From IMG/VR virus record IMGVR_UViG_3300042549_004104, positions 263,353-327,352 of that record: 64,000 nt of DNA. One strand, given 5' to 3'. Below the pieces are notes generated by a model. It made no database searches and was not told the origin of the DNA. It saw nothing but the letters and a program-made list of their open reading frames with translations. The position numbers and the translations under genes are program-made. The stretch is from a virus (Duplodnaviria; Heunggongvirae; Uroviricota; Caudoviricetes). Within the stretch, counting starts at the first letter, position 1. Each line of letters opens with the position of its first letter. Below, one piece after another: positions 4,992 to 56,338 of the stretch.

Positions 4992-5015
4992 TTGTGCAAC
5001 ACAAAGGTTGCACAA
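4992..5015. promoter_or_regulatory. perfect 9-bp inverted repeat (ttgtgcaac-acaaag-gttgcacaa) immediately upstream of folE
   Basis: Palindrome read directly in the sequence. No U-tract follows it. It may be an operator or an RNA hairpin. Confidence 0.4.
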
Positions 5016-5050
5016 TGTCAAAACAAAACACTCACAACGGAGGGTTATCT

Positions 5051-5725
5051 ATGAGTTATAATAAGACAAAAACTGATCCTGAATTAGGATTAAAAGTACA
5101 CGAACATCTAGTCAAGATGGGTGTTGAAACGCCAACCAAACCTGATACTAGGGACCGTAAAGACAAAATTGAATTGATTGAAAGTTATTTTGAAGGCATC
5201 ATGATGGCTTTGGGCCTAGACCTAAGTGATGATAGCTTAATGGACACACCCAAGCGTGTTGCTAAAATGTATGTTAACGAAATTTTCTGGGGATTAGATT
5301 ATGAAGCATTTCCAAAGTGTACGACTGTCGATAACAAGATGCATTACAATGAAATGGTCGTTGAACGCAACGTTAACGTCCAAAGTAATTGCGAACATCA
5401 CTTTGTTGTTATTGATGGGTTGGCTACAGTGGCTTATGTTCCGAAACAAAGAGTCCTCGGACTATCAAAAATTAACCGTATTGTTGAGTATTTCAGCAAA
5501 CGCCCTCAAATCCAAGAGCGACTCACAGAACAAATCTTCCACACTCTCCAATTTATACTGGAGACTGAAGATGTTGCGGTAATGATTGATGCACAACATT
5601 ATTGTGTAAAGTCACGTGGTGTAGAAGATACTGGTAGTAGTACAGTTACAAGTCGTTTAGGTGGTGGGTTCAAAAATGACCCAGCGGCACGTGCTGAGTT
5701 CTATCAAATTGCGAGACAGAAATGA
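5051..5725 (+). CDS. folE: GTP cyclohydrolase I (FolE)
   Basis: Near-identical core to E. coli FolE: CEHHFVVIDG, VLGLSKINRIVEYFSKRPQIQERLTEQI, DAQHYCVKSRG. Start chosen at MSYNKTK because it has a GGAGG SD. The ORF track extends to a GTG at 4994 that lies inside the palindrome. Confidence 0.93.
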   Translation: MSYNKTKTDPELGLKVHEHLVKMGVETPTKPDTRDRKDKIELIESYFEGIMMALGLDLSDDSLMDTPKRVAKMYVNEIFWGLDYEAFPKCTTVDNKMHYNEMVVERNVNVQSNCEHHFVVIDGLATVAYVPKQRVLGLSKINRIVEYFSKRPQIQERLTEQIFHTLQFILETEDVAVMIDAQHYCVKSRGVEDTGSSTVTSRLGGGFKNDPAARAEFYQIARQK

Positions 5726-5940
5726 ATCCAAAGATTAAGGCATTAGAACAACAATGCTGGAGTCATCGTGTAGACGGAGTATTAGTAGATGGTCACTTGC
5801 ATTTTGATACGGCAAAGTTTGCTGAATTGATTGTTAAAGAATGTATCCATGCATGTGTTGCTGACATAGCAGATCCTAGAGATACAATCGAATTTAAATG
5901 TGCAAAGAAAATTAAAGAACATTTTGGAGTTAAAGAATGA
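5722..5940 (+). CDS. HFGVEE-family small protein (paralog 1 of 5)
   Basis: MNxKIKALE N-terminus, KFAELIVKEC core and C-terminal KEHFGVKE. ATGA-coupled to folE. Confidence 0.6.
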   Translation: MNPKIKALEQQCWSHRVDGVLVDGHLHFDTAKFAELIVKECIHACVADIADPRDTIEFKCAKKIKEHFGVKE

Positions 5941-6173
5941 ACGAGAAACTTAGAGAATTTGCTTTAGAAGCAGGCGGCAGTCACTATCCTGAAGTAAATC
6001 CAATGCAATTAAAAAAGTTTGCCGAGTTGATTATTCGTGAATGTGCTGATATTATCAATCATCGTGCTGACACATGCAGTGATTGGTTAGATAGTGTCAA
6101 GGCAAATGAAGCAGTCCGTGAAGGACAAAGAGAGTGTGCTAAAACGATCAAAGAACATTTCGGAGTTGAATAA
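5937..6173 (+). CDS. HFGVEE-family small protein (paralog 2 of 5)
   Basis: KFAELIIREC core and C-terminal KEHFGVE. ATGA-coupled. Confidence 0.6.
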   Translation: MNEKLREFALEAGGSHYPEVNPMQLKKFAELIIRECADIINHRADTCSDWLDSVKANEAVREGQRECAKTIKEHFGVE

Positions 6174-6282
6174 TGATCGATATTATCACATTAATTTGTT
6201 TAATAATAGTTGCTTGGTATATAGCGGGCAAGCTACCAAAAAGTAATTGCAACGGTGATTGCCAACAAGGTCGTAACTGCAC

Positions 6283-8804: not shown

Positions 8805-9647
8805 ATGAATAAACTAAAAATATCAGAACTGTTTTACAGTGTACAAGGTGAAGGAAGATACATGGGTGTGCCAAGCGTGTTCTTACGCACGTTTGGTTGT
8901 AACTTTAAATGTGCTGGCTTCGGTATGTCTAAAGGAATGGAAAGTACAGAAAGGTTTAAAATAAATGCAGAAACTATTAAATCTTATAAATCACTACCAC
9001 TTGTTAGTACTGGATGTGATAGCTATGCGAGTTGGGATCCACGCTTCAAACATCTCAGTCCTTATTACGACATTGATACTATTGCCGATAATATTGTCAA
9101 TTTACTTCCTCATGGTCGTTGGAAAGATGAGCACTTGGTTATTACGGGTGGTGAGCCGCTCTTAGGCTGGCAACGTGAATATCCAGAGTTGTTATCACAT
9201 GATAATATGCGTGGATTACAAGAAATAACATTTGAAACTAATGGTACACAAATGTTATATCCTGAATTAGTTAATTATTTAAATGAATGGAAGAAACACC
9301 GCTATTTACATTGTCTAACATTCAGCGTAAGTCCTAAACTAAGTATCAGTGGTGAAAATTGGGAAGATGCTATTTGTCCCGATGTTGTTCAACAATATTA
9401 CAATACTGGTTATACTTATTTGAAATTTGTTGTAGCAACTAAAGAAGATGCAGAAGAAGCTGAACAAGCAGTTAATGAATATCGCAAACGTGGATTTAAA
9501 GGTCCTGTGTATCTTATGCCTTGCGGTGGTGTTACAGAACTTTATAATCTTAATAACAGAAAAGTTGCAGAACTTGCAATGCAAAAGGGTTGGCGCTATA
9601 GTGACAGACTACAAGTCCCGTTGTTCAAAAACGAATGGGGAACTTGA
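8805..9647 (+). CDS. queE: 7-carboxy-7-deazaguanine synthase-like radical-SAM protein (QueE family)
   Basis: The N-terminal ELFYSVQGEGRYMGVPSVFLRTFGCNFKC aligns with QueE (E.F.S.QGEG..G.P..F.R..GC...C), and VITGGEPLL matches the SAM-binding GGEP block. The third Cys of the canonical Cx3Cx2C is not in the usual place, so this is a divergent QueE. Confidence 0.7.
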   Translation: MNKLKISELFYSVQGEGRYMGVPSVFLRTFGCNFKCAGFGMSKGMESTERFKINAETIKSYKSLPLVSTGCDSYASWDPRFKHLSPYYDIDTIADNIVNLLPHGRWKDEHLVITGGEPLLGWQREYPELLSHDNMRGLQEITFETNGTQMLYPELVNYLNEWKKHRYLHCLTFSVSPKLSISGENWEDAICPDVVQQYYNTGYTYLKFVVATKEDAEEAEQAVNEYRKRGFKGPVYLMPCGGVTELYNLNNRKVAELAMQKGWRYSDRLQVPLFKNEWGT

Positions 9648-15870: not shown

Positions 15871-16276
15871 CAAATTAAAGAACTTATTCAAGAAAACAGA
15901 AAAGCCTGTTGAATCTAAGAAGCCAACTAAAGCAAAAACTAAGGCTCCAACTAAAGAATTAAGTCTTAAAGAAAAAGCAACACAAGCCGGGGAACCCTAC
16001 ATCAATATTTTAAGTTTAGATATTGATCCCAAAGATATCAACAGCGGTGCATTTGATTTAGACTTTAATGAAATTTTTGTAGCAAGATTAGTCAAAGCTG
16101 GTTACATGATGAGTAAGGATGACAAGGATACTGATATCGTAGATAGATGGTTCCAGCAAGTTTGTAGAAATGTAGTACTTGAGATGTATGAGCAAGTACA
16201 AGCGGATCCCATGAACCGTGACATTCGCCCTATCCAATCACGTGACCTTGGCAATGGACGTACAGAGGTGAGTTAA
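15863..16276 (+). CDS. hypothetical protein with a Lys-rich N-terminus
   Basis: ORF overlapping the uvdE stop. Confidence 0.45.
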   Translation: MFDKLKNLFKKTEKPVESKKPTKAKTKAPTKELSLKEKATQAGEPYINILSLDIDPKDINSGAFDLDFNEIFVARLVKAGYMMSKDDKDTDIVDRWFQQVCRNVVLEMYEQVQADPMNRDIRPIQSRDLGNGRTEVS

Positions 16277-17640
16277 TGATTGGATGGCCAGTACCTCCTA
16301 CTAATTTAAAATATTCTAAATGGTATGACTCGCTAATTAACAAGGCTTTACAAAGAAGCCTACCATTAACTATGTATACAGAACAACACCATATTGTTCC
16401 TAGAAGTTTTGGTGGCAGTGATGACATATCTAATCTAGTTAAACTTACAGCAAGAGAACATTATGTAGCGCATTTATTATTATGGAAGATACGCTTTCCT
16501 AGTGTATACGGTAGTAAAATGTCTTTTGCTTTTGGAACATTTGTTAACAGATTTAAACAAGAATATCATTCCTCATATAAGATAACAAGTAGGATTTATG
16601 CACAATTTAAAAAAGAATATTCTCTGTTGATGAGTGAGCGAATGTCAGGAGAAGGTAATCACTTCTTTGGCAAGACACATTCAGAAGAAACAAGACGAAT
16701 CATAGGTGAAAAGAGCAAGCAAAAGATTTTTAAAAAGGGACCAGAGAATCCAAATTGGGGTAAAAAACAAAATCTTTCTGATGAACAACGTAAAAAGAGA
16801 AGTGAAGGATCCAAAACTAGATGGGGGAACGATGAGTTCCGCAAAAAGATATTAACATCAAGAAAGCTATATTGGGAATCCGAAGAAGGTAGAGTAAGAG
16901 CTAACATATGGGCTGAAGGGCTTCGAGGAGTTAAACTTGATCCAGAACGTGTTGAAAAATCTGCAAGTAAAAAACGAGGGAAAAAAGGCACTGAAATATT
17001 TTCAGAACAAGCATTAGCTAATATACGTGAGGCTAACAAACATAGGATATATTCTGAAGAAGGTTTGGCAAAAATACGAGAGAGTTCAAGAAAAGTTGGA
17101 CAACGCCTCAAGTCAGAAGAACATAAGAAAAGAATTTCAGAATCAAATAAAGGCAAACACAATAATAAAGGTGAAAAAAATCCTATGTTTGGTAAGAAAC
17201 ATTCACCTGAAACAATAGCTAAAATAAAGGAAACAAAAAGAATATCTGCATTGAAAAATGCAAAGCCTAAATTTGTAGGTCCTTTGAAACCCAAAAACAT
17301 GATTACTTTTAGAGGAGTAAATTATGCTAGTATCAAAAAAGCAAGTTCGCATTTCGGTATACCAGTTGGAAAAATAAAAACACAGATAAAACATTGGGGG
17401 GAGAATCCAGACGCAGAAACAATCGCAAAGATTGATTCCGGAAAACTGAAACCACCTATGACAGCCTGGAATAAAGGTAGTATTGGATTGCAAGTTAGTT
17501 GGAATAAAGGTATGGAGGCACCTAAGTTTACATGTGAACATTGTGGTAAGATAGTAGGTGGAAAAACCAATTATATTAGGTATCACCATGATAATTGTAA
17601 ACTAAAAGTATTCACTTTATTGTCAACAAAAAAAGGTTGA
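16276..17640 (+). CDS. HNH homing endonuclease with repeated NUMOD3-like DNA-binding modules
   Basis: HHIVPRSFGGSDDISNLVKLTAREHYVAH HNH motif. At least 6 repeats of the GxxNPxxGKKHSxETxxKI type follow, as in T4 Mob and I-Hmu-type homing endonucleases. Confidence 0.8.
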   Translation: MIGWPVPPTNLKYSKWYDSLINKALQRSLPLTMYTEQHHIVPRSFGGSDDISNLVKLTAREHYVAHLLLWKIRFPSVYGSKMSFAFGTFVNRFKQEYHSSYKITSRIYAQFKKEYSLLMSERMSGEGNHFFGKTHSEETRRIIGEKSKQKIFKKGPENPNWGKKQNLSDEQRKKRSEGSKTRWGNDEFRKKILTSRKLYWESEEGRVRANIWAEGLRGVKLDPERVEKSASKKRGKKGTEIFSEQALANIREANKHRIYSEEGLAKIRESSRKVGQRLKSEEHKKRISESNKGKHNNKGEKNPMFGKKHSPETIAKIKETKRISALKNAKPKFVGPLKPKNMITFRGVNYASIKKASSHFGIPVGKIKTQIKHWGENPDAETIAKIDSGKLKPPMTAWNKGSIGLQVSWNKGMEAPKFTCEHCGKIVGGKTNYIRYHHDNCKLKVFTLLSTKKG

Positions 17641-25314: not shown

Positions 25315-25340
25315 GGCTCCGCTAGTCGGGGCTTTTTTTT
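25315..25340 (+). terminator. rho-independent terminator
   Basis: ggctccg-ctagt-cggggc stem followed by T8. Confidence 0.75.
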
Positions 25341-25349
25341 GCCCAAAAT

Positions 25350-25378
25350 TTGACAATAAATGGATACTCTGCTATACT
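25350..25378 (+). promoter_or_regulatory. early-type sigma70 promoter, cassette copy 1 (TTGACA-17-TATACT), leader class A
   Basis: tTTGACAataaatggatactctgcTATACT, then the leader gtattgattaattaaaggagct. Confidence 0.7.
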
Positions 25379-25681: not shown

Positions 25682-25705
25682 TACTTTATGTTACATACCC
25701 AAAAT

Positions 25706-25734
25706 TTGACAATAAATCGTTTTGGGTATATAAT
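25706..25734 (+). promoter_or_regulatory. early-type sigma70 promoter, cassette copy 2 (TTGACAATAAAT..GGGTATATAAT), leader class A
   Basis: Near-identical to copies 1 and 6, including the downstream leader cttgtattgattgattaaaggagct. Confidence 0.75.
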
Positions 25735-25764
25735 ACTTGTATTGATTGATTAAAGGAGCTAGTT

Positions 25765-26001
25765 ATGAAGGTAAAACTTTTTGTTACAGGTAGTCAGAAT
25801 TACATGTATTTCAAAAACAAACTTCCTACTAGGCGTTGGGATTACTGTGAGACACCCCGTACAGTGACCATTATCCAAGATCCGGTCAACGTCTATCAAG
25901 ACGGTGAGTATGGTTTTGTGAAGGTTTTTGGTCGTAAGATTTTTGTCAAATGTGACGGAAGTCATTGGGAAATTGTTGGTGCTGAGAAATCCAAAACTTG
26001 A
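25765..26001 (+). CDS. small early-cassette protein
   Basis: Driven by promoter copy 2. Its stop codon lies inside the -35 box of copy 3. Confidence 0.55.
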   Translation: MKVKLFVTGSQNYMYFKNKLPTRRWDYCETPRTVTIIQDPVNVYQDGEYGFVKVFGRKIFVKCDGSHWEIVGAEKSKT

Positions 26002-26026
26002 CAATAAATCAGTTTGGGTATATAAT
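25998..26026 (+). promoter_or_regulatory. early-type sigma70 promoter, cassette copy 3, leader class B
   Basis: cTTGACAataaatcagtttgggtaTATAATag, then the leader ctcttagacagtaaagaaaaggaaacaaaATG. Confidence 0.75.
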
Positions 26027-26058
26027 AGACTCTTAGACAGTAAAGAAAAGGAAACAAA

Positions 26059-26436
26059 ATGTCAAACGAATTCAAATCTTGGGAACAAATGTCTGAGTTA
26101 GAGCAGGCCCAATGTACATATTGGGATATGTACAAGGATGCGTATGGCGTTCGTCCTCGAGGCGTTGACACTTCTAGTTGGACTTTGGAACAGTTTGAAG
26201 CAGAGTTTGCTTCACTGGCTACTGCTATTGAACAAGAAGATGCCCAGCGCAAAACTGCTGAGGCAGAAGCCATCACTAAGTTTGAACAGCATGTGACCAA
26301 CATTACATGCATGGGTGCCCGCAATCGTGAGACCGCACTTAAGTGGATTATGGATGCTAGCAACGCCAATGGCGACTGGGAGTACTTTTGTTTTACTCAG
26401 GGTTTGCCTTATAATTACTTCAGAAAAGCAGCCTAA
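26059..26436 (+). CDS. acidic early-cassette protein (125 aa)
   Basis: Driven by promoter copy 3. Rich in D/E/Q with aromatic patches. Confidence 0.6.
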   Translation: MSNEFKSWEQMSELEQAQCTYWDMYKDAYGVRPRGVDTSSWTLEQFEAEFASLATAIEQEDAQRKTAEAEAITKFEQHVTNITCMGARNRETALKWIMDASNANGDWEYFCFTQGLPYNYFRKAA

Positions 26437-26438
26437 GG

Positions 26439-26467
26439 TTGACAATAAATGGATTTGGGTATATAAT
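26439..26467 (+). promoter_or_regulatory. early-type sigma70 promoter, cassette copy 4, leader class B
   Basis: gTTGACAataaatggatttgggtaTATAATag with the same leader as copies 3 and 7. Confidence 0.75.
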
Positions 26468-26499: not shown

Positions 26500-26772
26500 A
26501 TGTCTGCACTAGTTGAATACACATTGGAATTGTACAAATCTGACAAACGTGTTAAAGGCGGTAAGCGTCTTGTTACCAAACAAGAATTTGCCCCAGTCAC
26601 TAAAGCCTACATCAAGGCTGTGATTGAATCAAAAACTAAGTTGGGTTTTATTGTGGAAGCACATGAGACTTTTGTTACCAAACGCAACATGATGACTGGT
26701 AAGACATACCAAGAGCGTTATGATACCCCGTATTTCTGCTCACCCTCTAGCGAAACTTTTTGGAGCATGTAA
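26500..26772 (+). CDS. small early-cassette protein
   Basis: Driven by promoter copy 4. Confidence 0.55.
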   Translation: MSALVEYTLELYKSDKRVKGGKRLVTKQEFAPVTKAYIKAVIESKTKLGFIVEAHETFVTKRNMMTGKTYQERYDTPYFCSPSSETFWSM

Positions 26773-27711: not shown

Positions 27712-28266
27712 GTGATGAGTTTGTTTATTGTGGTTATTATTTTAACATTCTTAAGCCTTGCTATCACAGCCCTTTGCGGTATAAAGTATATTCATCCTAG
27801 TGCCCATCTTGGATTTAACGTTACTGAAAAATCAAAATTAGTACATCTTGCAAGATTCTGGTGGTGGTTAGTAACAGGATTAAATTTAAAAGAATATTCA
27901 GCCATACATAGACACAATCACGCACATTCTATGACAAAATGGGAAGATGGGATTCCACCTGATAGTGTTTTAGTACGTGCTAAAATGTTTATAGAACAAC
28001 GGCGTAATAAAAATCTTATAGAAGATTATGGTATTGAATCTCCGAACACATGGATAGATATTAACCTATATCAACGATATCATTACTTGGGTCCTGTAGT
28101 TTATTTGTTGTTATTACTATCAGTCTTAGGCACACCGGGATTTATTGTATGGATAGCACAATCAATATTCATTGTATTTTTATGTTCAGAATCTGTCAAT
28201 GCAGATAGAGATTTTTGTAGTAGTGAATTGTTAATGTTTTTGAAAACCAAAAAATATTACGAATAA
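27712..28266 (+). CDS. integral membrane protein (at least 3 TM)
   Basis: Multiple hydrophobic helices. Preceded by a 30-aa hydrophobic mini-ORF at 27619-27711. Confidence 0.5.
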   Translation: MMSLFIVVIILTFLSLAITALCGIKYIHPSAHLGFNVTEKSKLVHLARFWWWLVTGLNLKEYSAIHRHNHAHSMTKWEDGIPPDSVLVRAKMFIEQRRNKNLIEDYGIESPNTWIDINLYQRYHYLGPVVYLLLLLSVLGTPGFIVWIAQSIFIVFLCSESVNADRDFCSSELLMFLKTKKYYE

Positions 28267-28281
28267 TTTAGGAGTTAAAGA

Positions 28282-29619
28282 ATGAGTGCAAGTTGGATTA
28301 ATAAATTAAACGAGAGCGATAGCCGCCTCCACAAAGAAGATGTAATTTTGCAGGCGCTTGAGGCAAGTGTCCTAGGTAGTCGTAATAGTCAGATTTTCTT
28401 GGGCTTTACCAAAGCCTGTTACAACCCTTATGTTACGTTTGGTATTCGTCAAGTGCCCGATACAGTAGGTATAACTGATGCAGAGAATCCTTGGGACGAT
28501 TTTAATGAGTTGATGGTACAACTTAGTCAGCGTAGGTTGACAGGTCATGCCGCACGTGATGCTGTACAAAATATATCTGAACGATTTGATAGTATAGAAT
28601 GGAACACATTTTTAGCTCCAGTATTGCGTAGAGACTTACGTGCCGGTATCAGTGACAAGACAATCAATAAAATTTGTAAAGGTACTGACTATGAAGTGCC
28701 AATCTTTGGTTGTCAACTAGCAACTAATAGTGAAGGTCGCCCTGAGATGAAAGGTATCAAACGTCTTGAACCTAAACTTGATGGCGTTCGTGTATTGTTG
28801 ATGGTTATCCCTGATGAAGAAGGTAACGTTGTTACTATTTGCTTTAGTCGCAATGGTAAACAGTTTGACAACTTTGGTCATATTGAAAATCAAATACGTG
28901 ATAACTTTGTAAAACTTACACACAAAGCCGCAACAAGTAATCTGAGTATGGGCTTTGTAATGGATGGTGAAGTGATTGGTAATACATTCCAAGAACTTAT
29001 GCGTCAAGCACGCCGTAAGACTGATGTGCAAGCAGAGGATAGTGTGTTCAATGTATTTGACATTCTACCACTTGATGCTTTCCGTGAAGGTCATTGGAAT
29101 GCACAACTACACAAACGCATTACTATTTTAGAAGATATGCGTAGTATTATTGATAACATGCCTAACGTTGAATTGTTACCACATATCATGGTTGACTTGG
29201 ATACAGCGGCAGGTAAGGATCAATTAGAGCGATATGCTAAGGATCAAGTTAATCTTGGATTCGAAGGCATTATGATTAAAAACGTAGAAGCCCCATATGT
29301 CTGCAAACGCAGTACAGATTGGATGAAATGGAAACCCACTATCACAGTTGACTTAACTGTTGTTGGTCTTGAAGAAGGTACTGGAAGAAATGCCGGTCGG
29401 CTTGGTGCTCTTGTTTGTGAGGGTGAAGATGACGGTAAAATCATTCAAGTGAATGTGGGTAGTGGATATAGTGATGAGGATCGTAGTGATTATTGGATTA
29501 ACTCTAATAGCATCATTGGTCGTACTGCTGAAATCATGTGTGACGTAATTACTCAAAATCGTGATGGTACTTATAGTTTGCGTTTCCCCCGTTTTGTTAG
29601 ATTTAGGGATGATAAATGA
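28282..29619 (+). CDS. ATP-dependent DNA ligase
   Basis: Nucleotidyltransferase motif I EPKLDGVRVL (KxDGxR), motif IV EGIMIK and motif V DWMKWK. 445 aa, as in phage T4/T7-type ligases. Confidence 0.88.
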   Translation: MSASWINKLNESDSRLHKEDVILQALEASVLGSRNSQIFLGFTKACYNPYVTFGIRQVPDTVGITDAENPWDDFNELMVQLSQRRLTGHAARDAVQNISERFDSIEWNTFLAPVLRRDLRAGISDKTINKICKGTDYEVPIFGCQLATNSEGRPEMKGIKRLEPKLDGVRVLLMVIPDEEGNVVTICFSRNGKQFDNFGHIENQIRDNFVKLTHKAATSNLSMGFVMDGEVIGNTFQELMRQARRKTDVQAEDSVFNVFDILPLDAFREGHWNAQLHKRITILEDMRSIIDNMPNVELLPHIMVDLDTAAGKDQLERYAKDQVNLGFEGIMIKNVEAPYVCKRSTDWMKWKPTITVDLTVVGLEEGTGRNAGRLGALVCEGEDDGKIIQVNVGSGYSDEDRSDYWINSNSIIGRTAEIMCDVITQNRDGTYSLRFPRFVRFRDDK

Positions 29620-29855
29620 ACGATAAATTTAAAATACTGGCTCTGCAGGCCAAAATGGGCACTGCTGACTTTGATGCAGGTAGTTACTATGTTGCCACAC
29701 CAGACCAGATGCAAAAATTCTGCGAGTTGATTATTGCTAAGTGTATCGAGGAAGCAGGTGATCCAGCCGATGGGTTAATTCTAGGCGATACCTGGCACGA
29801 TGGTGTTCGTGCTAGTGTTTGGAGTATTCGACAACATTTCGGAGTTGAAGAATGA
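29616..29855 (+). CDS. HFGVEE-family small protein (paralog 3 of 5)
   Basis: KFCELIIAKC core and C-terminal RQHFGVEE. ATGA-coupled to the ligase gene. Confidence 0.6.
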   Translation: MNDKFKILALQAKMGTADFDAGSYYVATPDQMQKFCELIIAKCIEEAGDPADGLILGDTWHDGVRASVWSIRQHFGVEE

Positions 29856-30061
29856 ACGAAAGAATTAAAGAACTTATTAATGAATCCACCTGCTTCAAAG
29901 AAGGTGATACCGAAGGGAAATACGATATTGAAGTGTTTGACAAAGAAAAGTTCGCCGAGTTGATTGTACGGGACTGTATGCTTATCTGTGAAGATGTTAT
30001 GAAAAAAGATAATTCTGCGCTTGGTTGTTGGAGTGAAATCAAAAGAACATTTCGGAGTTGA
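29852..30061 (+). CDS. HFGVEE-family small protein (paralog 4 of 5); its C-terminus is out of frame relative to the family
   Basis: KFAELIVRDC core. Ends ...EIKRTFRS*, whereas the +1 frame reads KEHFGVEE* up to 30067. There is one extra A in the run atcaaaaga compared with the paralogs. Confidence 0.5.
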   Translation: MNERIKELINESTCFKEGDTEGKYDIEVFDKEKFAELIVRDCMLICEDVMKKDNSALGCWSEIKRTFRS

Positions 30062-30064
30062 AGA

Positions 30065-30364
30065 ATGAATGAACGAATTCGAGAACTTGCTGAACAGGCT
30101 GGAACATACTTTGGAGGAGGAACGACTGATTATTTCGGTGATTATTTGCCTCCGTATGTGTCAATAACTGATCTAGATTTAGAAAAGTTCGCCGAGTTGA
30201 TTGTGCGAGAATTTGTCAGTATCGTGGAAGAAGAAATTAAATTGGTAGAAGAATTCAAATCCACTGCTGTGAAAGCTGATGTGATTAAATGTCATACAAG
30301 TAAAATTTATCATTTTCATAAATTGATTGATAAGAGTAAGAAACATTTCGGAGTTGAAGAATGA
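30065..30364 (+). CDS. HFGVEE-family small protein (paralog 5 of 5)
   Basis: MNERIRELAEQAG N-terminus, KFAELIVREF core and C-terminal KKHFGVEE. Confidence 0.6.
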   Translation: MNERIRELAEQAGTYFGGGTTDYFGDYLPPYVSITDLDLEKFAELIVREFVSIVEEEIKLVEEFKSTAVKADVIKCHTSKIYHFHKLIDKSKKHFGVEE

Positions 30365-37184: not shown

Positions 37185-38387
37185 ATGTCCGAAGAAAATA
37201 AACCAATAAATTATTGTAGCTTTTGCAACAACCACAAAGATGCTGTTAAAAAACTAGTAGTCGGTGGTTCTGTTGCTATATGTAGTGATTGCGTTGAATT
37301 ATGCCAAGAACTCATAACTGATGGAGTTGTTGAACCTACAACAAAAGAATCCAATCCAGATTACGATCCAGAGTCCATAAAAGAATACCTAGATCAACAT
37401 GTCATTGGACAAGATGATGCTAAAAAGGTTCTCAGCGTAGCCATTGCTAATCACTATAAACGGATAAATAATCCTCCTAAAGATTTAGAAATACAAAAAG
37501 GCAATGTACTTATTGTAGGTCCGACAGGTAGTGGCAAAACCTTACTTGCAAAGACTGCGGCTAAATATCTTAAAGTGCCCTTCGTTGTAGCTGATGCAAC
37601 TAGTTTAACCGAAGCAGGTTATGTAGGTGATGATGTTGAATCAATGATTAACATGTTGCTCAATGCGGCTAACGGTGATAAAGACTTAGCCGAGCGTGGT
37701 ATCGTATTTGTTGATGAAATTGACAAAATTGCCCGAAAGAGTGAGAGTGTTAGTATAACACGTGATGTATCAGGTGAGGGAGTACAACAAGCATTACTCA
37801 AATTAGTTGAAGGTACAGTATGTCGCATAGCAGGAAGCGGTGGCAGAAAACATCCTGGTGCCGACATGCTTGAAATAAACACAAAAAACATATTATTCAT
37901 TGCAGGCGGGGCTTTTGTTGGATTGAAGGAAGTAATAGGAAATAGATTAAATGGAACAAGTATCGGGTTTCAAGCGGCTATCAAAGATAATAAAAAAGAG
38001 GGTGAACTAAGCAAAGTTACCCCTGATGATTTAACAAAGTACGGAATGATTCCAGAATTCATAGGTAGATTTACTACTACAGTTAGTATTGATGAATTAG
38101 ATAAAGAACAGTTGATTCATATCTTAACCGATGTTAAAAATAATTATATCAGCCAATACAAATATTTGCTTAAATTAGATAATATCGAACTTACATTTAC
38201 CCAAGATGCATTGGAACAAATGGCAGAAAATTCATTAACTCTGAAAACAGGGGCTCGTGGATTGCATACAGAAATTGAGCGAGTATTAATGCCGCATATG
38301 TTCCTCACCAAATCATACCGTCAAAATAACATAAAATTGCTAAATATTAACAAGGAGCAGATTTTAAATCCAAAATCTTTGTTATGA
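37185..38387 (+). CDS. clpX: ClpX AAA+ unfoldase
   Basis: N-terminal C4 zinc-binding domain (CSFCNN...CSDCVELC). Walker A GPTGSGKT. GYVG pore-1 loop. Walker B IVFVDEIDKI. IGF ClpP-docking loop (SIGFQAA). Confidence 0.93.
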   Translation: MSEENKPINYCSFCNNHKDAVKKLVVGGSVAICSDCVELCQELITDGVVEPTTKESNPDYDPESIKEYLDQHVIGQDDAKKVLSVAIANHYKRINNPPKDLEIQKGNVLIVGPTGSGKTLLAKTAAKYLKVPFVVADATSLTEAGYVGDDVESMINMLLNAANGDKDLAERGIVFVDEIDKIARKSESVSITRDVSGEGVQQALLKLVEGTVCRIAGSGGRKHPGADMLEINTKNILFIAGGAFVGLKEVIGNRLNGTSIGFQAAIKDNKKEGELSKVTPDDLTKYGMIPEFIGRFTTTVSIDELDKEQLIHILTDVKNNYISQYKYLLKLDNIELTFTQDALEQMAENSLTLKTGARGLHTEIERVLMPHMFLTKSYRQNNIKLLNINKEQILNPKSLL

Positions 38388-38703: not shown

Positions 38704-40593
38704 ATGAGCAAAGTCATCGGTATCGATTTGGGTACCACAAATTCATGCGTAGCCGTTATTGAGAACGGAATCCCCAAAGTAATTGAAAACAGTGAAGGTG
38801 CTAGAACAACACCAAGTATTGTCGCCTATACAGACGAAATTCTTGTTGGTGCTAGTGCTAAACGTCAAGCAGTTACTAATCCAAAAAACACAATTTATGC
38901 AGCCAAGCGTTTGATCGGTCGTAAATTTACCGAAGAAGCTGTACAAAAAGATATCAACTTGATGCCTTACAAAATTGTTGCTAATGACAACGGTGATGCA
39001 TGGGTTCAAGTAAATGAAGATAAACTAGCACCTCCACAAATCAGTGCAGAAGTCTTACGCAAAATGAAAAAGACTGCGGAAGATTATCTCGGTGAAGAAG
39101 TTACACAAGCAGTTATTACTGTTCCCGCATATTTCAATGATAGTCAAAGACAAGCAACCAAAGACGCAGGACGTATTGCCGGTCTAGAAGTATTGCGTAT
39201 CATTAACGAACCTACAGCAGCCGCATTGGCGTATGGTGTAGATAAACAAGACAAGCGTGACCGTAAAGTTGCAGTGTACGACTTAGGTGGTGGTACATTT
39301 GATGTATCTATCATTGAATTGGCAGATGTTGATGGTGACAAACAAATTGAAGTATTGTCCACAAACGGAGACACATTCTTAGGTGGTGAAGACTTTGACC
39401 AACGAATCATGGATTTCTTGGTTGACGAATTCAAAAAGGATCAAGGCGTTGATTTGACTAAAGATGTGTTAGCATTGCAACGACTTAAAGAAGCCGCAGA
39501 AAAGGCTAAGATTGAGTTGAGTAGTTCAGTACAAACAGATGTTAACTTACCGTACATCACCGCAGATGCAAATGGCCCTAAACATTTGAACGTTAAGTTG
39601 ACACGTAGCAAACTAGAACAACTAGTTGAAGAACTTATCAAACGTAGTATCGAGCCTTGCAAGACAGCAATGAAAGATGCCGGTGTAAGTGCTAGTGACA
39701 TTGACGAAATTATCTTAGTTGGCGGCATGACACGTATGCCTAAGGTACAAGAAGAAGTTGAAAAACTATTCGGCAAAGCACCACGCAAAGATGTTAACCC
39801 TGATGAAGCAGTAGCAGTTGGTGCCGCAGTTCAAGGCGCAGTACTAAGTGGTGAGCGCAAAGACGTATTGTTGCTTGACGTTACTCCATTGAGTTTGGGT
39901 ATTGAAACAATGGGCGGTGTAATGAGCAAATTGATTGCTAAGAACACAACAATTCCAACTAAACAAAGTCAAACATTCAGTACAGCCGAAGATAATCAAC
40001 AAGCAGTTACAATCAAAGTGTTCCAAGGTGAGCGTGAGATTGCAAAATACAATAAAGGTCTAGGTGAATTTAACTTAGATGGTATTGCACCAGCACCCCG
40101 CGGAGTACCTCAGATTGAAGTTACTTTTGATATTGACGCAAATGGTATCATGCATATCAGTGCTAAAGACAAAGGTACGGGCAAAGAAAACAAAATCACT
40201 ATTAAGAGTAATAGTGGTTTGAGCGAAAGTGAAATTCAGCAAATGGTTAAAGATGCTGAGGACAATGCAGAAACAGACAAGAAAGCACGTGAATTGATTG
40301 AAGCACGTAATGGAGCAGAATCAACATTGAATGGCTTCCGTAATGACTTTGAAAAGTACAAAGACCAAGTTACAGAAGAAGAACGTACTAAAGCAGAAGA
40401 AGCATTAAAAGCAGTTGAATATGCGATTCTAGGTGATGACGCAACAGTTATCCAAGAATCTATTCCTAAACTATATGAAGCAATTGGTCCTATCACTAAG
40501 GTTAAACACGATGCTGAAGAAGCAGAGAAGAAACAATCACAAGAAGCAGATGTGGTTGATGCAGAAGTTAAAGAGTCCGCAGAGACTGTTTAA
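38704..40593 (+). CDS. dnaK: DnaK (Hsp70) chaperone
   Basis: [22 protein letters not shown] and [11 protein letters not shown] signatures. Full-length 629 aa with the C-terminal substrate-binding domain. Confidence 0.97.
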
Positions 40594-41168: not shown

Positions 41169-41477
41169 ATGGCACAAACTGAAACAAGAATTAGAATTAG
41201 ACCCAATTTGAAAGTACCTGAACCCCCAATGTTCAAGGTAATTTATATGAACGATAATCACACTTCAATAGAGTTTGTCGTTAAAAGTTTGATTGACCAT
41301 TTTAATTATACAGAGGATACTGCATCATCTATTACTACAGGAATTCATGAATCCGGTAGTGCAGTTGTTGCTGTGTTGCCCTTTGAAATTGCAGAACAAA
41401 AGGGAATTGAAGTTACACTTGATGCCAGAAACCAAGGGTATCCACTTCAAGTTAAAATAGAAGCCGACGCAACTTAA
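41169..41477 (+). CDS. clpS: ClpS N-degron adaptor protein
   Basis: EPPMFKVIYMNDNHTSIEFVVKSL aligns with E. coli ClpS [24 protein letters not shown]. About 100 aa. Confidence 0.85.
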   Translation: MAQTETRIRIRPNLKVPEPPMFKVIYMNDNHTSIEFVVKSLIDHFNYTEDTASSITTGIHESGSAVVAVLPFEIAEQKGIEVTLDARNQGYPLQVKIEADAT

Positions 41478-44572: not shown

Positions 44573-44620
44573 ATGCTTGACCTAATAAGAAATTACATAT
44601 ATAATGTAGTTTTATAATAA
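44573..44620 (+). promoter_or_regulatory. candidate sigma70-like promoter upstream of clpP (cTTGACCtaataagaaattacataTATAAT)
   Basis: Read from the sequence; -35 TTGACC, 17-nt spacer, TATAAT. Confidence 0.5.
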
Positions 44621-44632
44621 GGAAAGTATAGT

Positions 44633-45220
44633 ATGAGTTTAGTCCCAATCGTTATCGAACAAACAAGCAAAGGTGAGCGTAGTTATGATATCTACAGCCG
44701 CTTATTGCGTGACCGTGTAATTTTGCTTGAGGGCGAAGTACATGACCAAATGGCAAATCTTATCGTTGCCCAATTACTATTTTTAGAATCAGAAGGTGAT
44801 AAAGATATTTCAATGTATATCAATAGTCCTGGTGGTAGTGTAACTGCTGGCATGGCAATCTATGATGCAATGCAATTTGTCAAACCAGAGATTCACACAA
44901 TCGTTATGGGTCAAGCATGTAGTATGGGTAGTTTGCTTGCACAAGCAGGCTCATCTGGCAAACGTTTTATGTTGCCAAATGCACGGCACATGATTCATCA
45001 GCCTTCAGGTGGCGCACGTGGACAAGCAACTGATATGCTGATTCAGGTCAATGAAATTCTTGAAATGAAAAAGAACCTCACAGAAATCTATGTTAAGCAT
45101 AATTCAAAAGGTAAAACTTTTGACGTACTTCATGCTGATATGGAACGAGATAATTTTATGAGTAGCCAACAAGCACTTGATTATGGTCTTGTAGACGAAA
45201 TAGTTACAAAACGCGGTTGA
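44633..45220 (+). CDS. clpP: ClpP serine protease
   Basis: Nearly collinear with E. coli ClpP: [48 protein letters not shown] (catalytic Ser), HQP (His). Confidence 0.96.
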
Positions 45221-45245
45221 CAATAAATCACTTTGGGTATACAAT
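45217..45245 (+). promoter_or_regulatory. early-type sigma70 promoter, cassette copy 5 (TTGACAATAAATCACTTTGGGTATACAAT), leader class C
   Basis: The -35 box overlaps the clpP TGA stop. Confidence 0.7.
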
Positions 45246-45274
45246 AGAGGCTTCTGTAGTGAAAAGGAGTTTTT

Positions 45275-45475
45275 ATGTCTTACGTTGTTTTCAAGCACAA
45301 TAAAGAGTACGGTCCTCGCAAGGGTCTCGAGGGTCCGTTTCACTATCCCAATGGTCAGGTTCTGTATTACGATCCTAAAGAAGGTGAGTACTACGATCCT
45401 CGTACCGACTTCTACGTTGACCGTGACGAGGTCGCCCTTCTGCAAAATTCAATTTTTGAAGTACTCAAAAAGTAG
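45275..45475 (+). CDS. small early-cassette protein
   Basis: AAGGAG SD; 66 aa. Confidence 0.5.
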   Translation: MSYVVFKHNKEYGPRKGLEGPFHYPNGQVLYYDPKEGEYYDPRTDFYVDRDEVALLQNSIFEVLKK

Positions 45476-45498
45476 TACTTTTATCTTATACCCAAAGG

Positions 45499-45527
45499 TT
45501 GACAATAAATCACTTTGGGTATATAAT
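45499..45527 (+). promoter_or_regulatory. early-type sigma70 promoter, cassette copy 6, leader class A
   Basis: gTTGACAataaatcactttgggtaTATAATacttgtattgattgattaaaggagct. Confidence 0.75.
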
Positions 45528-45558
45528 ACTTGTATTGATTGATTAAAGGAGCTTACAG

Positions 45559-45831
45559 ATGCGTACAAAAACAGTGATTGAAGGTTTCAAGAATTCACAA
45601 AAATTTCGTGTGATTTTCAAAGGTGATGGATCCGAAAACGAAATCGGTTTGTACATGACAATCAGCCAAATGACTGAAATGTTTGCTACCACTCTTGCAC
45701 GTACACTGGTTTGGGAAGCATTGATTCAGTTGTCTTACGAGCGTAGAATGGCTGAGGCAACTCGCAACCCTGTCCCAACAGGTCTCGGTACTACAATTCG
45801 CAACAAGCAAATTCAATTAGATTTGGTTTAA
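45559..45831 (+). CDS. small early-cassette protein
   Basis: Driven by promoter copy 6. Confidence 0.5.
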   Translation: MRTKTVIEGFKNSQKFRVIFKGDGSENEIGLYMTISQMTEMFATTLARTLVWEALIQLSYERRMAEATRNPVPTGLGTTIRNKQIQLDLV

Positions 45832-45840
45832 GGAGTTAAC

Positions 45841-46008
45841 ATGAAATTAGAAACCGCTCTCAACGTGATTAACAAGGAAGCTAAGTTTTTGGGCTTGACC
45901 TCTTTTGCAATGATGCAATTTATTGCAAAGAATCCCTTGGCACAACCAAAAAAGACATTAGAAGCCTTTAAGGTTGTGAAAGATAGTACTACCAATACAT
46001 TTGCGTAA
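45841..46008 (+). CDS. small protein (55 aa)
   Basis: AGGAG SD 6 nt upstream. Below the ORF-track size cut-off. Confidence 0.4.
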   Translation: MKLETALNVINKEAKFLGLTSFAMMQFIAKNPLAQPKKTLEAFKVVKDSTTNTFA

Positions 46009-46019
46009 CAGGAAACAAA

Positions 46020-46391
46020 ATGAAAAAAATATTTGGTATTATGATATTGATTGGTTGTATTTCTGCCCGGGCAGAGGTAGAATTCATTACAGTAGCACAG
46101 GATCCATCTGTTTCAATTACGGTTGTAAGTGCTGACGGGATACGACCTTATCTTATTGAAACCGGAACACCCAATATCAAAAGAGTTATTAAAACATTCA
46201 GGTTTACTAAATTTTTAAAGGATCAAATAGTCATTAGTCATACTGAATACGCATGTGCTGAGGGTTTAGAACGTTCATTATGGGCACGTGATGGTAGCAC
46301 TAATGAATTATTATCTGCTATACAACCATGGACTAAGGTTAGTGGTAAAGCCTCATTAAAAATTTATGATATGGTTTGTATTAAAGGTTGA
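46020..46391 (+). CDS. secreted protein (signal peptide)
   Basis: MKKIFGIMILIGCISARA signal peptide. Confidence 0.5.
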   Translation: MKKIFGIMILIGCISARAEVEFITVAQDPSVSITVVSADGIRPYLIETGTPNIKRVIKTFRFTKFLKDQIVISHTEYACAEGLERSLWARDGSTNELLSAIQPWTKVSGKASLKIYDMVCIKG

Positions 46392-46416
46392 CAATAAATC
46401 ACTTTGGGTATATAAT
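46388..46416 (+). promoter_or_regulatory. early-type sigma70 promoter, cassette copy 7, leader class B
   Basis: gTTGACAataaatcactttgggtaTATAATagaatcttaaacagtaaacaacaggag. The -35 box overlaps the upstream TGA. Confidence 0.75.
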
Positions 46417-46444
46417 AGAATCTTAAACAGTAAACAACAGGAGT

Positions 46445-46909
46445 TTGCAAATGGGAACACGTTCACTTATCGCAGTTGTTCATGGCAATAACTACAAAAC
46501 TGTTTATTGTCATTGGGATGGTTATCTGTCACACAATGGTCGTATTTTGCAAGAACACTATGATTCACCTAAAGCAAACAACCTTATTGCACTAGGTAAT
46601 ATTTCTAGTTTGCAACGCAACATTGGCGAAAAGCATCCCTTCAGTCAATTTGACACTGACATATCTGCAAAAGAATTTGAAGAAAAGTATTGCAACATGA
46701 CTACATTCTATGGTCGTGACCGTGATGAAACAGGTCAAGAGTTTATCACGCACACTAGCAAAGAATCATTGATTGAACAATTCAACGATAGTTGGTGTGA
46801 GTTTGCATATATCATGCAAGACGGTGTTTGGTATGTTATGTTTCAAGGTGACAGTGAATTCTATTTGTTGTCAGAAGAATTGGTCAAAGATAAAGAAACA
46901 CAGGAGTAA
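46445..46909 (+). CDS. hypothetical protein (154 aa)
   Basis: Driven by promoter copy 7. Confidence 0.55.
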   Translation: MQMGTRSLIAVVHGNNYKTVYCHWDGYLSHNGRILQEHYDSPKANNLIALGNISSLQRNIGEKHPFSQFDTDISAKEFEEKYCNMTTFYGRDRDETGQEFITHTSKESLIEQFNDSWCEFAYIMQDGVWYVMFQGDSEFYLLSEELVKDKETQE

Positions 46910-46911
46910 AT

Positions 46912-47241
46912 ATGGAAGCAGTGGTAGAGACTACAGTCTGGAACGATAGCAACAAAGCTAATCATACCTATCTACTAGATGGATCTAAAATGATTGCATA
47001 CATCAAAGTAGGCGCCACTGCTCCCTTCTATTTTAACAAACCGATTACAATAGACAAACGAGGTCGTAAATTTCAAACACTTAGGGTTAACCCTTTTAAA
47101 AAGATCAAGGAAAAATCTACAGTAATTAAAATTACCGGTAGTAAAGGAAATATATATAGTATTGATACAGAAGAAAAAACATGCACGTGTCCTGGATTCA
47201 TGTATCGTGGTAGTTGTAAACACATAACGGAGTTGGTATGA
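46912..47241 (+). CDS. small protein with a C-terminal SWIM-type zinc finger (CTCPGFMYRGSCKH)
   Basis: CxCx(9)CxH spacing. Confidence 0.5.
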   Translation: MEAVVETTVWNDSNKANHTYLLDGSKMIAYIKVGATAPFYFNKPITIDKRGRKFQTLRVNPFKKIKEKSTVIKITGSKGNIYSIDTEEKTCTCPGFMYRGSCKHITELV

Positions 47242-47378
47242 ATAAATTTACTTTGCAAAAAAATAGTTGGATTTCATTTGAAATGTTGCTAGTGTGTATT
47301 GCACTAGTAGGATTTCCCTTTATGATATTTTGTTTAGCAACAGGGATAAAATTAGCAGAATTAATGTTTGGATAAGTA

Positions 47379-48220
47379 TGAAAATAGCAGTATGCAGTGA
47401 CCTTCATTTAGAGTTTATGGACATTATCCTCAAGAACGAGGAAGATGCAGAGGTCCTCATCCTGTCCGGCGACATTATGATTGCCGAAGATTTACACAAT
47501 CATCCACCCGTACATCCCAATGATCCTGTTAATATCCCGAACTTAGGTCGTAGACAAGAAACTGCATTACGATTCCGTGACTTCCTAAGTCGTTGTAGTT
47601 TTCAATTTCCGCATGTTTTATATATAGCGGGTAATCATGAATTCTATCATGGTCGTTGGAGTGCTAGTATCCAACACTTGCGTGACGAGTGTGCAAGATA
47701 TCCTAATGTTTATTTCCTTGAAAATGATATCAAGGTTATCAATGATATAACATTCATTGGTGCAACACTATGGACAGACTGTAACAAAGCTGATCCATTA
47801 ACATTGCATGCCTTGCAAGACATGATGAATGACTTTAGAGTGATTCGGAATGATGAACTTGGATACACTAAATTGCGTCCTGCTCATATTGCTATGCGCC
47901 ACAAGAAAACTTTAGAATACTTCAAAATTGTACTAAGTAACTTGAAGGAAGATAAAGTAGTTATCGTTGGTCATCACAGTCCTAGTCATTTGAGTATCCA
48001 TGAAAAATACAAAGGTCAAGACTTGATGAACGGTGGATATCACAGTGACTTGAGTGAATTCATTTTGGATCATCCCCAAATTAAAGTATGGACTCATGGT
48101 CATACACATGATCCATTTGACTATATGATTGGTGAAACACGAATCGTATGTAATCCGAGAGGTTACAGTGGTTGGGACGAAAATGCGGATAAATTCCAAT
48201 TAAAATATATAGAATTATGA
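47379..48220 (+). CDS. calcineurin-like metallophosphoesterase
   Basis: The MPE motifs are present in order: VCSDLH, GDIM, GNHEF, GHHSP, GHTHD. Start taken at MKIAVCSDLH; the ORF track begins at 47294. Confidence 0.75.
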
Positions 48221-49307: not shown

Positions 49308-49333
49308 TCTTAGGATTGTAGTTGTTTCATATA

Positions 49334-49363
49334 AAGGGTGATTCGTCACCCTTTTCTGTTTTC
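49334..49363 (+). terminator. rho-independent terminator
   Basis: aagggtga-ttcg-tcaccctt stem followed by a T-rich tract. Confidence 0.7.
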
Positions 49364-55639: not shown

Positions 55640-56338
55640 TTACGCTGTGAACGATATAGTTTTTACAAATCCATCTAGAGGATTCTCTGGAGTAGGAGTA
55701 AGTGATGTATAAGTTGCTTCATACCAGTCTTGCCCCGAATTGTAGGTAAAAGCAGAAGTCAATGTTAATTCATAACTAGTAGTATAATATACAATATCTA
55801 TTACTGTGCTAGTAGGCAACGCCAGTATAGTTGCAGTACTTGTGATCCAATTATTTGAATTGATTATCAGCTTGTTCGATCCAATCTGTGTTATTATCAC
55901 ACCCCCTGAATTATAATTAGCCCCACCACTTGTGTAAGATATCGGAGAACCTGATGTGAACGAGATAGTAGTTACGAATCCATCTAGAGGATTCTCTGGA
56001 GTAGGAGTAAGTGATGTATAAGTTGCTTCATACCAGTCTTGCTCCGAATTGTAGGTAAAAGCAGAAGTCAGTGTTAATTCATAATTAGTACTTCCAAAAT
56101 ATACAACATCTATTACTGTGCTAGAAGGCAACGCTAGTATAGTTGCAGTACTTGTGGTCCAAGCACCTGGATTGATTATCAGCTTGTTCCCTCCAATCTG
56201 TGTTATTATCACACCTCCTGAATTATAATTAGTCCCCTGACTTGTGTAAGATGTTGTCCCACCGCCCCCGCCTGCCGGTGCGTCTGCTTGAATGCCTGCT
56301 CCAATTGTAATTCCTGACCCTATTGTTATAACTCCCAT
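55640..56338 (-). CDS. beta-rich protein made of two tandem copies of a ~100-aa domain
   Basis: Nucleotide blocks ~55664-55965 and ~55966-56275 are about 85-90% identical. Protein repeats read GANYNSGGVIITQIG.NKLIIN...STATILALP.STVID.VY....YELTLTSAFTYNS.QDWYEATYTSLTPTPENPLDGFV.TISFT. Confidence 0.55.
   Translation of the reverse strand: MGVITIGSGITIGAGIQADAPAGGGGGTTSYTSQGTNYNSGGVIITQIGGNKLIINPGAWTTSTATILALPSSTVIDVVYFGSTNYELTLTSAFTYNSEQDWYEATYTSLTPTPENPLDGFVTTISFTSGSPISYTSGGANYNSGGVIITQIGSNKLIINSNNWITSTATILALPTSTVIDIVYYTTSYELTLTSAFTYNSGQDWYEATYTSLTPTPENPLDGFVKTISFTA

Follow-up and report, generated by a model that had tools for sequence, protein, structure and literature searches.

The stretch analysed here, hereafter the window, comprises 64,000 nucleotides (nt) of a virus of the Caudoviricetes (IMG/VR record IMGVR_UViG_3300042549_004104, positions 263,353 to 327,352). 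Immediately downstream of its clpP gene, a module consisting of a sigma70-type promoter, a short leader and a ribosome-binding site occurs three times ahead of small open reading frames (ORFs), and further copies are found in a second locus 20 kb away. These repeats exceed chance expectation, are conserved throughout a clade of related phages and are accompanied by gene turnover at several evolutionary distances, with junctions lying inside modules and with modules of hybrid composition. The interpretation that we favour, with a probability of roughly 80%, is that clade-wide sigma70 promoter modules drive small accessory ORFs and are also used as homology patches for the shuffling of cassettes.

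Promoter modules downstream of clpP

On the + strand of the window, TTGACA hexamers begin at 45217, 45499 and 46388, exactly where an earlier reading of the sequence (the original prediction) had placed three promoter copies. They are followed by the 17-nt spacer ATAAATCACTTTGGGTA and then by TATAAT, or by TACAAT at 45217, and in a sequence scan these promoters scored 11-12 of 12 against the sigma70 hexamer consensus. The 31-mer GGTTGACAATAAATCACTTTGGGTATATAAT matched the window five times when up to three mismatches were accepted, always on the + strand, against an expected count of zero in 100 dinucleotide-preserving shuffles of the window. Under looser criteria, which combined repeat finding with a promoter scan, seven copies were recovered, namely 25350, 25706, 25998 and 26439 (array 1) and the three focal copies (array 2). 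Downstream of each promoter come a leader of 25-35 nt, an AGGAG-type ribosome-binding site, an ATG and a small ORF, and in all three focal copies the Shine-Dalgarno sequence (AAGGAG or AGGAG) lies 6-9 nt 5′ of the ATG. The array does start directly 3′ of clpP, as had been stated, the clpP stop codon (45218-45220) being the TGA within the first -35 hexamer.

The modules had also been described as identical units of 60-70 nt, and this did not hold. The cores (positions -2 to +29) of the three focal copies are 97-100% identical to one another, 84-90% identical to the array-1 copies 25706, 25998 and 26439, and 55-58% identical to the degenerate array-1 copy 25350. On the other hand, the leader of 45499 equals that of 25706 over 26 of 26 positions (class A), and the leaders of 46388 and 26439 (class B) share 92% identity. 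Since cores match within an array and leaders match across arrays, each unit is a mosaic of an array-specific promoter and a class-specific leader. Leader classes A (45499) and B (46388) were retained, and a third class proposed for 45217 was dropped because its leader is found only at the 66-amino-acid (aa) ORF and its orthologues.

All features of array 2 lie on the + strand. Module 5 (45215-45274) contains the promoter 45217-45245 (TTGACA-N17-TACAAT) and the unique leader with AAGGAG, and has orthologues in L007, L072 and L196 (related loci are designated by L and a number). It is followed by o66 (45275-45475; 66 aa), which shows a weak OCRE-like aromatic repeat and matches phrog_13298. Module 6 (45497-45558; promoter 45499-45527 and class-A leader) is a hybrid and precedes the cassette ORF o90 (45559-45831; 90 aa), which in L061 and L071 is a member of array 1 and whose leader is of class B in L002, L003, L009, L019, L037, L072 and L196. 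The following ORF, o55 (45841-46008; 55 aa), has no promoter of its own in the window; in L003, L037 and L040 it has its own module, and its order relative to o90 is reversed. At 46006-46025 lies the 3′ end of a class-B leader without a promoter (TAACAGGAAACAAAATGAAA), comparable to the leader of window copy 26439 (...AAAAGGAAACAAAATG), and this remnant constitutes the left edge of a replaceable slot, being found in the same context 5′ of alternative genes in L196 and L194. The slot is occupied in the window by o123sec (46020-46391), the secreted protein that had been announced for this array, whose 123 aa include a Sec-type signal peptide with an AXA site and two conserved Cys. A lipoprotein assignment was rejected for o123sec, since its LIGC motif is unconserved and the AXA signal-peptidase-I site is kept in two homologues. 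Its stop codon is the TGA of the third -35 hexamer (46388), which belongs to module 7 (46386-46450; promoter 46388-46416 and class-B leader). Downstream of it, o152 (46451-46909; 152 aa) belongs to phrog_1987, with more than 5000 homologues, and is likewise found in array 1 in L061 and L071. The ORF lengths of 66, 90 and 154 aa given in the original prediction were correct for the first two; the third is more likely 152 aa from the ATG at 46451, which is favoured by an AGGAG 8 nt upstream, by orthologues starting with MGTRS or MATRS and by the Joint Genome Institute (JGI) gene call of 152 aa. The array closes with a SWIM-type zinc-finger protein (46912-47241; 109 aa), mostly paired with o152 in relatives, in which the expected CxC...CxH motif is present, with a Pfam score of 19.1 that falls below the cut-off of 19.6.

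Searches of the cassette ORFs against Pfam and PHROGs returned nothing beyond weak or unnamed families, and PDB sequence searches for o152, o123sec and o90 were empty. The AlphaFold (AF2) model of o152, with a predicted local distance difference test (pLDDT) score of 73.7, gave no Foldseek match in the PDB at E ≤0.001.

Clade-wide conservation, gene turnover and hybrid modules

The exact 123-aa protein, in the same gene order, was found on a 359,425-bp JGI metagenome contig, and the 509-aa protein encoded 5′ of clpP led to relatives on IMG/VR contigs as long as 352, 367 and 524 kb. Neither near nor distant DNA searches retrieved a close deposited phage, and the 509-aa protein and the helicase had zero tblastn matches in 50,697 phage records. 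Deposited matches were limited to clpP (about 65-71% nt identity) and the ligase (at most 34% aa identity to any cultured phage), and no T4 core marker was present among the proteins scanned from 64 kb of the ~359 kb. The source is a huge (~360 kb) uncultivated freshwater phage without a close cultured relative.

In the window and 44 related loci, the promoter together with the spacer start ATAAAT was counted at 162 sites on the + strand and about one on the - strand. The consensus extends from -5 to about +55, that is, from aaagg 5′ of the -35 hexamer through the ribosome-binding site. The spacer reads ATAAAT-CAC-TTTGGGTA at the focal copies, and the clade pattern is TTGACA-ATAAAT-NNN-TTTGGGTA-TATAAT. 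At least 118 IMG/VR stretches contain this exact 29-mer (three N, one Y), and a scan of 185,579 species genomes returned it from a single 1.9-kb contig of a metagenome-assembled genome (MAG). That lone match (L202; CAIUKZ010000432.1, 1880 bp, positions 367-395) is binned to a Lake Erken 'Bacteroidales' MAG; it was rejected as evidence for the host, the contig being probably a mis-binned phage fragment. Across 2.06 Mb of fetched related loci, 688 modules (536 of them unique) precede 127 ORF families with a median ORF of 90 aa, and neighbouring modules are separated by a median of 385 bp. Their main leader classes are A (acttgtattgattgattaaaggag) and B (agaatcttagacagtaaagaaaagga), both unstructured (folding z-scores of -0.6 or higher). 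Phages that share promoter, spacer and leader have 509-aa marker proteins merely 45-65% identical.

A variation of ORF content between related phages at these sites had been anticipated, and this was confirmed. By tblastn synteny, the conserved backbone consists of phosphoesterase(-), an SprT-like gene, the gene of the 509-aa protein, clpP, a gap, and phosphoesterase-o83-o175-o179-o178, and the interval between clpP and the latter phosphoesterase ranges from about 0.4 kb (L006) to more than 8 kb (L012). The backbone is kept and the content between its genes differs; identical content was seen only among near-identical copies of the same phage. Cassettes were also observed to change array. Homologues of the window array-1 ORFs at 25409 and 25765 lie directly 3′ of clpP in L003/L010 (76% identity) and L004 (48%). 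L061 has o90 and o152 in array 1; the clpP locus on that 367-kb contig, L006, is without cassettes. Similarly, a 91%-identical o152 adjoins the array-1 flank and the ligase gene in L071. Array 1 itself forms a presence/absence series in relatives, with the order 90a-78-125-90b, the same without 78, without both 78 and 125, or with other ORFs instead. As a separate observation, L003 12635-12955 (also L010 13294) contains an 86-aa ORF with an o55-like N-terminus and a C-terminus like window ORF 26500-26772, and because two ORF types are joined in it, shuffling would also make chimeric small proteins.

The recombination at promoter repeats that the original prediction had proposed was supported by junctions inside modules and by hybrids, with the amendment that crossovers occur also in the leader and in the ribosome-binding site/ATG, and not in the promoter alone. 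L007, the closest locus in IMG/VR, differs from the window by an additional module and a 110-aa ORF between o66 and o90. In window module 45499, the left flank and the spacer variant agree with L007 module 12422 and the leader agrees with L007 module 12812, and this joining of a left to a right part places the crossover within TTTGGGTATATAATA. In the same way, L059 module 5683 is a hybrid of L055 modules 4647 (left) and 5380 (right), with two ORFs removed. Moreover, window positions 45499-45552 equal L196 2491-2544 (54/54), where the sequence drives a 36-aa ORF that is followed by a class-B module driving o90; from this comparison, the class-A leader of o90 in the window is explained by loss of the 36-aa cassette between two modules. 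In six further pairs, blocks of similarity end at -35, -7, -5, 0, +13, +29, +33 and +50 to +65 relative to the -35 hexamer.

A replacement at strain level was revealed at the slot 46006-46393. From 46383, 5 nt ahead of the -35 hexamer, up to 49646, L194 and the window are 99.3% identical; 5′ of 46383, L194 carries a gene for a 98-aa lipoprotein in the position of o123sec. At module 7, homology with L007, L072, L194 and L196 restarts at -13 to 0 relative to the first base of the -35 hexamer. The slot is thus occupied by the 123-aa secreted protein in the window, by the 98-aa lipoprotein in L194 (1-345) and by a 143-aa lipoprotein related to the latter in L196 (3150-3640); it is empty in L072, and o123sec is absent from both L072 and L007. 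All occupants share AAGGAAACAAAATGAAA on their left side, which is the class-B leader 3′ end without the promoter, and the o123sec of the window is 4-7 residues shorter than two homologues, ending at the TGA of the module. That all occupants are predicted to be exported suggests diversifying selection on an envelope-directed early function, and superinfection exclusion is among the functions that such a slot may serve.

Leaders were also found to be exchanged over the same gene. Among ORF families with at least three members, both leader classes occur within one family in 18 of 40, and a1_90b of array 1 has leader B in the window and leader A in seven close relatives. At variable positions, module similarity was 0.51 within a genome and 0.46 between genomes, a difference reached by 1 of 2000 permutations, and in 23 of 62 cases a paralogous module of the same genome was nearer than any orthologous one.

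Competing explanations and comparable systems

In the favoured explanation, a module would comprise a consensus host-sigma70 promoter with a fixed spacer, a leader from either of two classes that can replace each other, a ribosome-binding site and the ATG of a small accessory ORF. On infection, all modules would be transcribed by the RNA polymerase of the host, with starts about 7 nt after the -10 hexamer, both the promoter activity and the early timing being predicted from the sequence. No terminator-like hairpin was detected by scanning beside the three focal modules, and no terminator was found between cassettes in the array, the first convincing one 3′ of it being an intrinsic terminator with a 9-bp stem and a T-run at 49333-49354 (+ strand); nested transcripts would therefore run to about 49.35 kb. 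Among 531 unique modules, the stop codon of the upstream ORF lies inside the -35 hexamer in 190 (36%; TGA in TTGACA) and 1-12 nt before it in 191. Together these account for 72% of modules, so that the cassettes would not be transcriptionally insulated. The modules would represent portable homology patches, as a sequence of 30-60 nt recurs in direct orientation every ~300-700 bp in two or more arrays separated by 20 kb. The general recombination system of the phage would use these 30-60-nt identities as crossover or conversion substrates, and homologous recombination or gene conversion between modules would delete, insert, replace or relocate units of leader plus ORF, homogenising neighbouring promoters at the same time. 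We infer a homology-driven exchange by the phage's own recombination machinery, along with the direction of each event and the roles of the ORFs; a site-specific exchange is disfavoured because the deduced crossover points spread across the module.

Several points weigh against this explanation. The association of modules with variable gene junctions (91 of 97 junctions with a module, 486 of 663 without; odds ratio 5.5, p 1.6e-6), which counts in its favour, derives from crude ORF calls and phylogenetically non-independent genomes and is indicative only. Indels without a module in the interval were found at SWIM/phosphoesterase, in the o238 region, at a 67-aa ORF of L072 and as multi-kb inserts in L012 and L018, and o152 and the SWIM protein are fairly conserved, usually together and not freely shuffled. 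Breakpoints located at modules (blocks that stop at +29 or 0) are in part inherent in the comparison, because all modules are alike and alignments run into their neighbours, and modules occupy gene boundaries, where cassette-sized changes end anyway. The clade-wide conservation of spacer and leader could reflect selection for function rather than recombination, and promoter strength, start sites and timing are read from the sigma70 consensus. Nevertheless, alignment run-on does not affect the evidence from hybrid modules, from swapped leaders or from the replacement at strain level.

It is unlikely that selection by itself explains the modules, in which case promoters would be alike for strong early expression, cassettes would turn over by unrelated routes (illegitimate recombination, homing endonucleases, or whole genes that later gain a promoter) and the coincidence with modules would only reflect gene boundaries. 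Selection is needed anyway to conserve the module over phages with such divergent marker proteins, certain indels do lack modules, and an HNH endonuclease is encoded in the window. However, seamless hybrids carry flank and spacer variants from two parent modules, cores are homogenised within an array and leaders match the other array, leaders are swapped on the same ORF among close relatives, and the strain-level swap has module pieces at both of its edges. Duplication in tandem of one promoter-gene unit followed by divergence, with the ORFs as old paralogues and no shuffling, is scarcely credible and was rejected, even though the repeats are direct and regularly spaced and a single partial relationship exists between o55-like and a1_90b-like ORFs: the cassette ORFs are mutually dissimilar by tblastn within the window, 127 unrelated ORF families follow the module, and close relatives differ in gene content, with genes switching array.

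A dedicated site-specific system, either integron-like or a mini-circle exchanger, in which a phage recombinase or regulator would read the spacer and the inverted repeat at -35, has features in its favour. The spacer ATAAAT-NNN-TTTGGGTA is conserved far past the needs of sigma70, in some copies the -35 hexamer lies between the arms of an inverted repeat (ACCCAAAG/CTTTGGGT), for which one compensatory variant was seen, and cognate flanks fold slightly better than swapped ones (-5.22 vs -4.83 kcal/mol; reached by 2 of 200 permutations). We consider such a system very unlikely, since the deduced crossovers at -35, -7, -5, 0, +13, +29, +33, +50 to +65 and the ribosome-binding site/ATG define no single site, only 13 of 57 comparable modules possess the upstream arm of the inverted repeat, and the genes flanking the two arrays revealed neither an integrase nor a recombinase domain. 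A related and rather doubtful possibility is that the module acts as an address tag, from which a phage factor would read spacer and inverted repeat and would move units of leader plus ORF, possibly as mini-circles, between arrays or co-infecting phages. If that were true, a dedicated cassette exchange would operate across the clade, with one slot specialised for rapidly exchanged exported proteins.

The promoter modules have their closest known counterpart in the promoter-early stem-loops (PeSLs) of the T4-type phages RB49/phi1, T4/PST and KVP40/nt-1 (Arbiol et al. 2010, PMC2839356; Comeau et al. 2014, PMC4122927). A PeSL includes an AT-rich region, a stem-loop terminator, a sigma70-like promoter, a Shine-Dalgarno sequence and an ATG; the elements are concentrated in hyperplastic regions, bound indels and form hybrid elements and mini-circles. 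Their crossovers fall between the -10 hexamer and the ATG, and also in the promoter, degraded 'half' elements occur, and mini-circles as well as promoter and terminator activity were measured (PMC2839356, PMC4122927). The modules described here resemble PeSLs in having as repeat core a near-consensus sigma70 promoter with a 17-nt spacer, recognised here from sequence, and a Shine-Dalgarno sequence with a downstream ATG at the 3′ end. They also form dense direct repeats before small, mostly ORFan genes in hyperplastic regions beside indels or replacements, and degraded 'half' elements are present among them. In both systems two modules would recombine, the intervening ORF being lost or gained and one hybrid being left, as judged here by comparison of relatives. 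In contrast, the stem-loop terminator is missing from most modules of this clade, the spacer and the two leader classes are conserved clade-wide, and the lineage that carries them is uncultivated, of ~360 kb, and not detectably close to cultured T4-type phages. The module is treated as working like a PeSL and is counted as a variant rather than a member.

Two other kinds of gene arrangement are comparable in part. Morons typically occur singly, each with its own terminator, and their promoters are unrelated; those of lambdoid phages, credited to Juhala et al. and Hendrix et al. in 2000, are said to be promoter-bearing extra genes between backbone genes that vary between relatives. The cassettes resemble them as extra genes with their own promoter between backbone genes, but a single promoter/leader sequence serves hundreds of them and would itself be the source of homology for exchange. 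They were not assigned to the lambdoid type of moron, an autonomous unit of promoter, gene and terminator, since a promoter is present but a terminator between cassettes is absent. Integron cassettes are promoter-less, end in attC sites, need an integrase and form tandem arrays of small single genes with high turnover. The likeness lies in the tandem arrays of small one-gene cassettes and in their turnover; the difference lies in a promoter for each cassette and in crossovers distributed over the whole repeat. An integron array was rejected, given flanking genes without a recombinase domain, the promoters and the scattered junctions. For the slot 46006-46393, a parallel is offered by the T4 internal-protein (IP) locus, where, as recounted in PMC4122927, alternative small genes swap in one slot (Repoila et al. 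1994). As far as that account goes, the o123sec/lipoprotein slot is similar in that its alternatives are flanked by conserved regulatory sequence, and different in that they are of exported or lipoprotein type, not encapsidated internal proteins, and belong to another phage lineage.

Shuffling mediated by promoters is already known from T4-type phages and is not conceptually new. To our knowledge, it has so far been documented in those phages only, and it is extended here to an uncultivated lineage of 350-525-kb phages, with hundreds of modules and more than 100 small ORF families. This mode of genome plasticity needs no terminator. The 29-mer is a sequence handle by which the pool of accessory 'early' genes in these phages can be located in metagenomic data, and near-identical strains differing by one cassette are ready natural experiments. 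The hot slot for exported proteins is a defined candidate for superinfection exclusion or envelope remodelling.

Inverted repeats, array 1 and other contents of the window

An 11-bp inverted repeat (TATACCCAAAG / CTTTGGGTATA) surrounds the -35 hexamer of module 6 at 45487-45523 (+ strand; -14.4 kcal/mol, z -2.4) and may form a hairpin in read-through RNA. Repeats of 10-11 bp around the -35 hexamer were observed there, at 25694-25733 of the window and at ~9795-9835 of L037, the last with a compensatory GCC/GGC variant. With the upstream arm confined to that minority of modules and a weak covariation signal, the repeat was rejected as a defining stem-loop part; it is possibly an RNA 3′ hairpin, an operator or a relic.

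Array 1 begins with a canonical intrinsic terminator at 25316-25343 (GCTCCG-ctagt-CGGGGC followed by T8) that ends 6 nt 5′ of the promoter 25350-25378, both on the + strand, and this is the sole PeSL-like terminator-promoter composite in either array. The arrangement is kept in L046, L048, L055, L060 and L071. The modules 25706, 25998 and 26439 (25706-26467, + strand) precede ORFs of 78, 125 and 90 aa, which they are predicted to drive. Array 1 is flanked by genes for a hydrolase, a1_222 and the ligase, and array 2 by those for the SprT-like protein, the 509-aa protein, ClpP and the phosphoesterase.

The clpP gene (44633-45220, + strand; 195 aa), a conserved backbone gene, was assigned by the Pfam family CLP_protease on the identical gene in L064, and its product shares 78-91% aa identity with those of relatives. 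It is preceded by a sigma70-type promoter outside the repeated class (44577-44605, + strand; TTGACC-N17-TATAAT), with a counterpart at the same place in relatives. Beyond the SWIM protein, o45 (47238-47375, + strand), a hydrophobic ORF of 45 aa without a module, marks a variable position that is filled by 0.5 kb of other ORFs in relatives, and the conserved backbone restarts with a calcineurin-like phosphoesterase (47378-48220, + strand; 280 aa).

The window as a whole is an accessory-gene region with co-directional sigma70-type promoters. Its genes for DNA enzymes specify a ligase, a FEN-type exonuclease, a helicase, UvdE and an HNH endonuclease, and others encode GTP cyclohydrolase I, a radical-SAM protein, MazG, superoxide dismutase and a glycosyltransferase; neither tRNA genes nor Rfam families were found within the window. 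The proteostasis genes (ClpX-like, DnaK, Hsp20, ClpS and ClpP) lie between 37185 and 45220, with ClpX-like at 37185-38387, DnaK at 38704-40593, Hsp20 ending at ~41106, ClpS at ~41169-41477 and ClpP at 44633-45220. This set of chaperones and proteases around the cassette array is unusually complete for a phage. The genes for GTP cyclohydrolase I (FolE) and the radical-SAM protein (4994-5725 and 8805-9647) are near each other and may be part of a 7-deazaguanine (queuosine/archaeosine-type) nucleotide or DNA-modification pathway.

An HNH + NUMOD3 homing-endonuclease-like ORF (16276-17640) ends in the -35 hexamer of promoter 17637, which would drive a ResIII helicase gene, and this is a further example of a stop codon embedded in TTGACA. 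A repeated start context without a promoter (...CATTTYGGAGTTRAAGAATGA) was observed at 5903-6176, 28248-28285 and 29818-30364 (families D3 and D6-D8), where it stands 5′ of the ligase gene and of two clusters of small paralogous ORFs. Finally, two tandem copies of ~310 bp at 55646-56252, 90-95% identical (families D4/D5), lie in a 232-aa minus-strand ORF (55640-56338) and represent an internal duplication within one protein.

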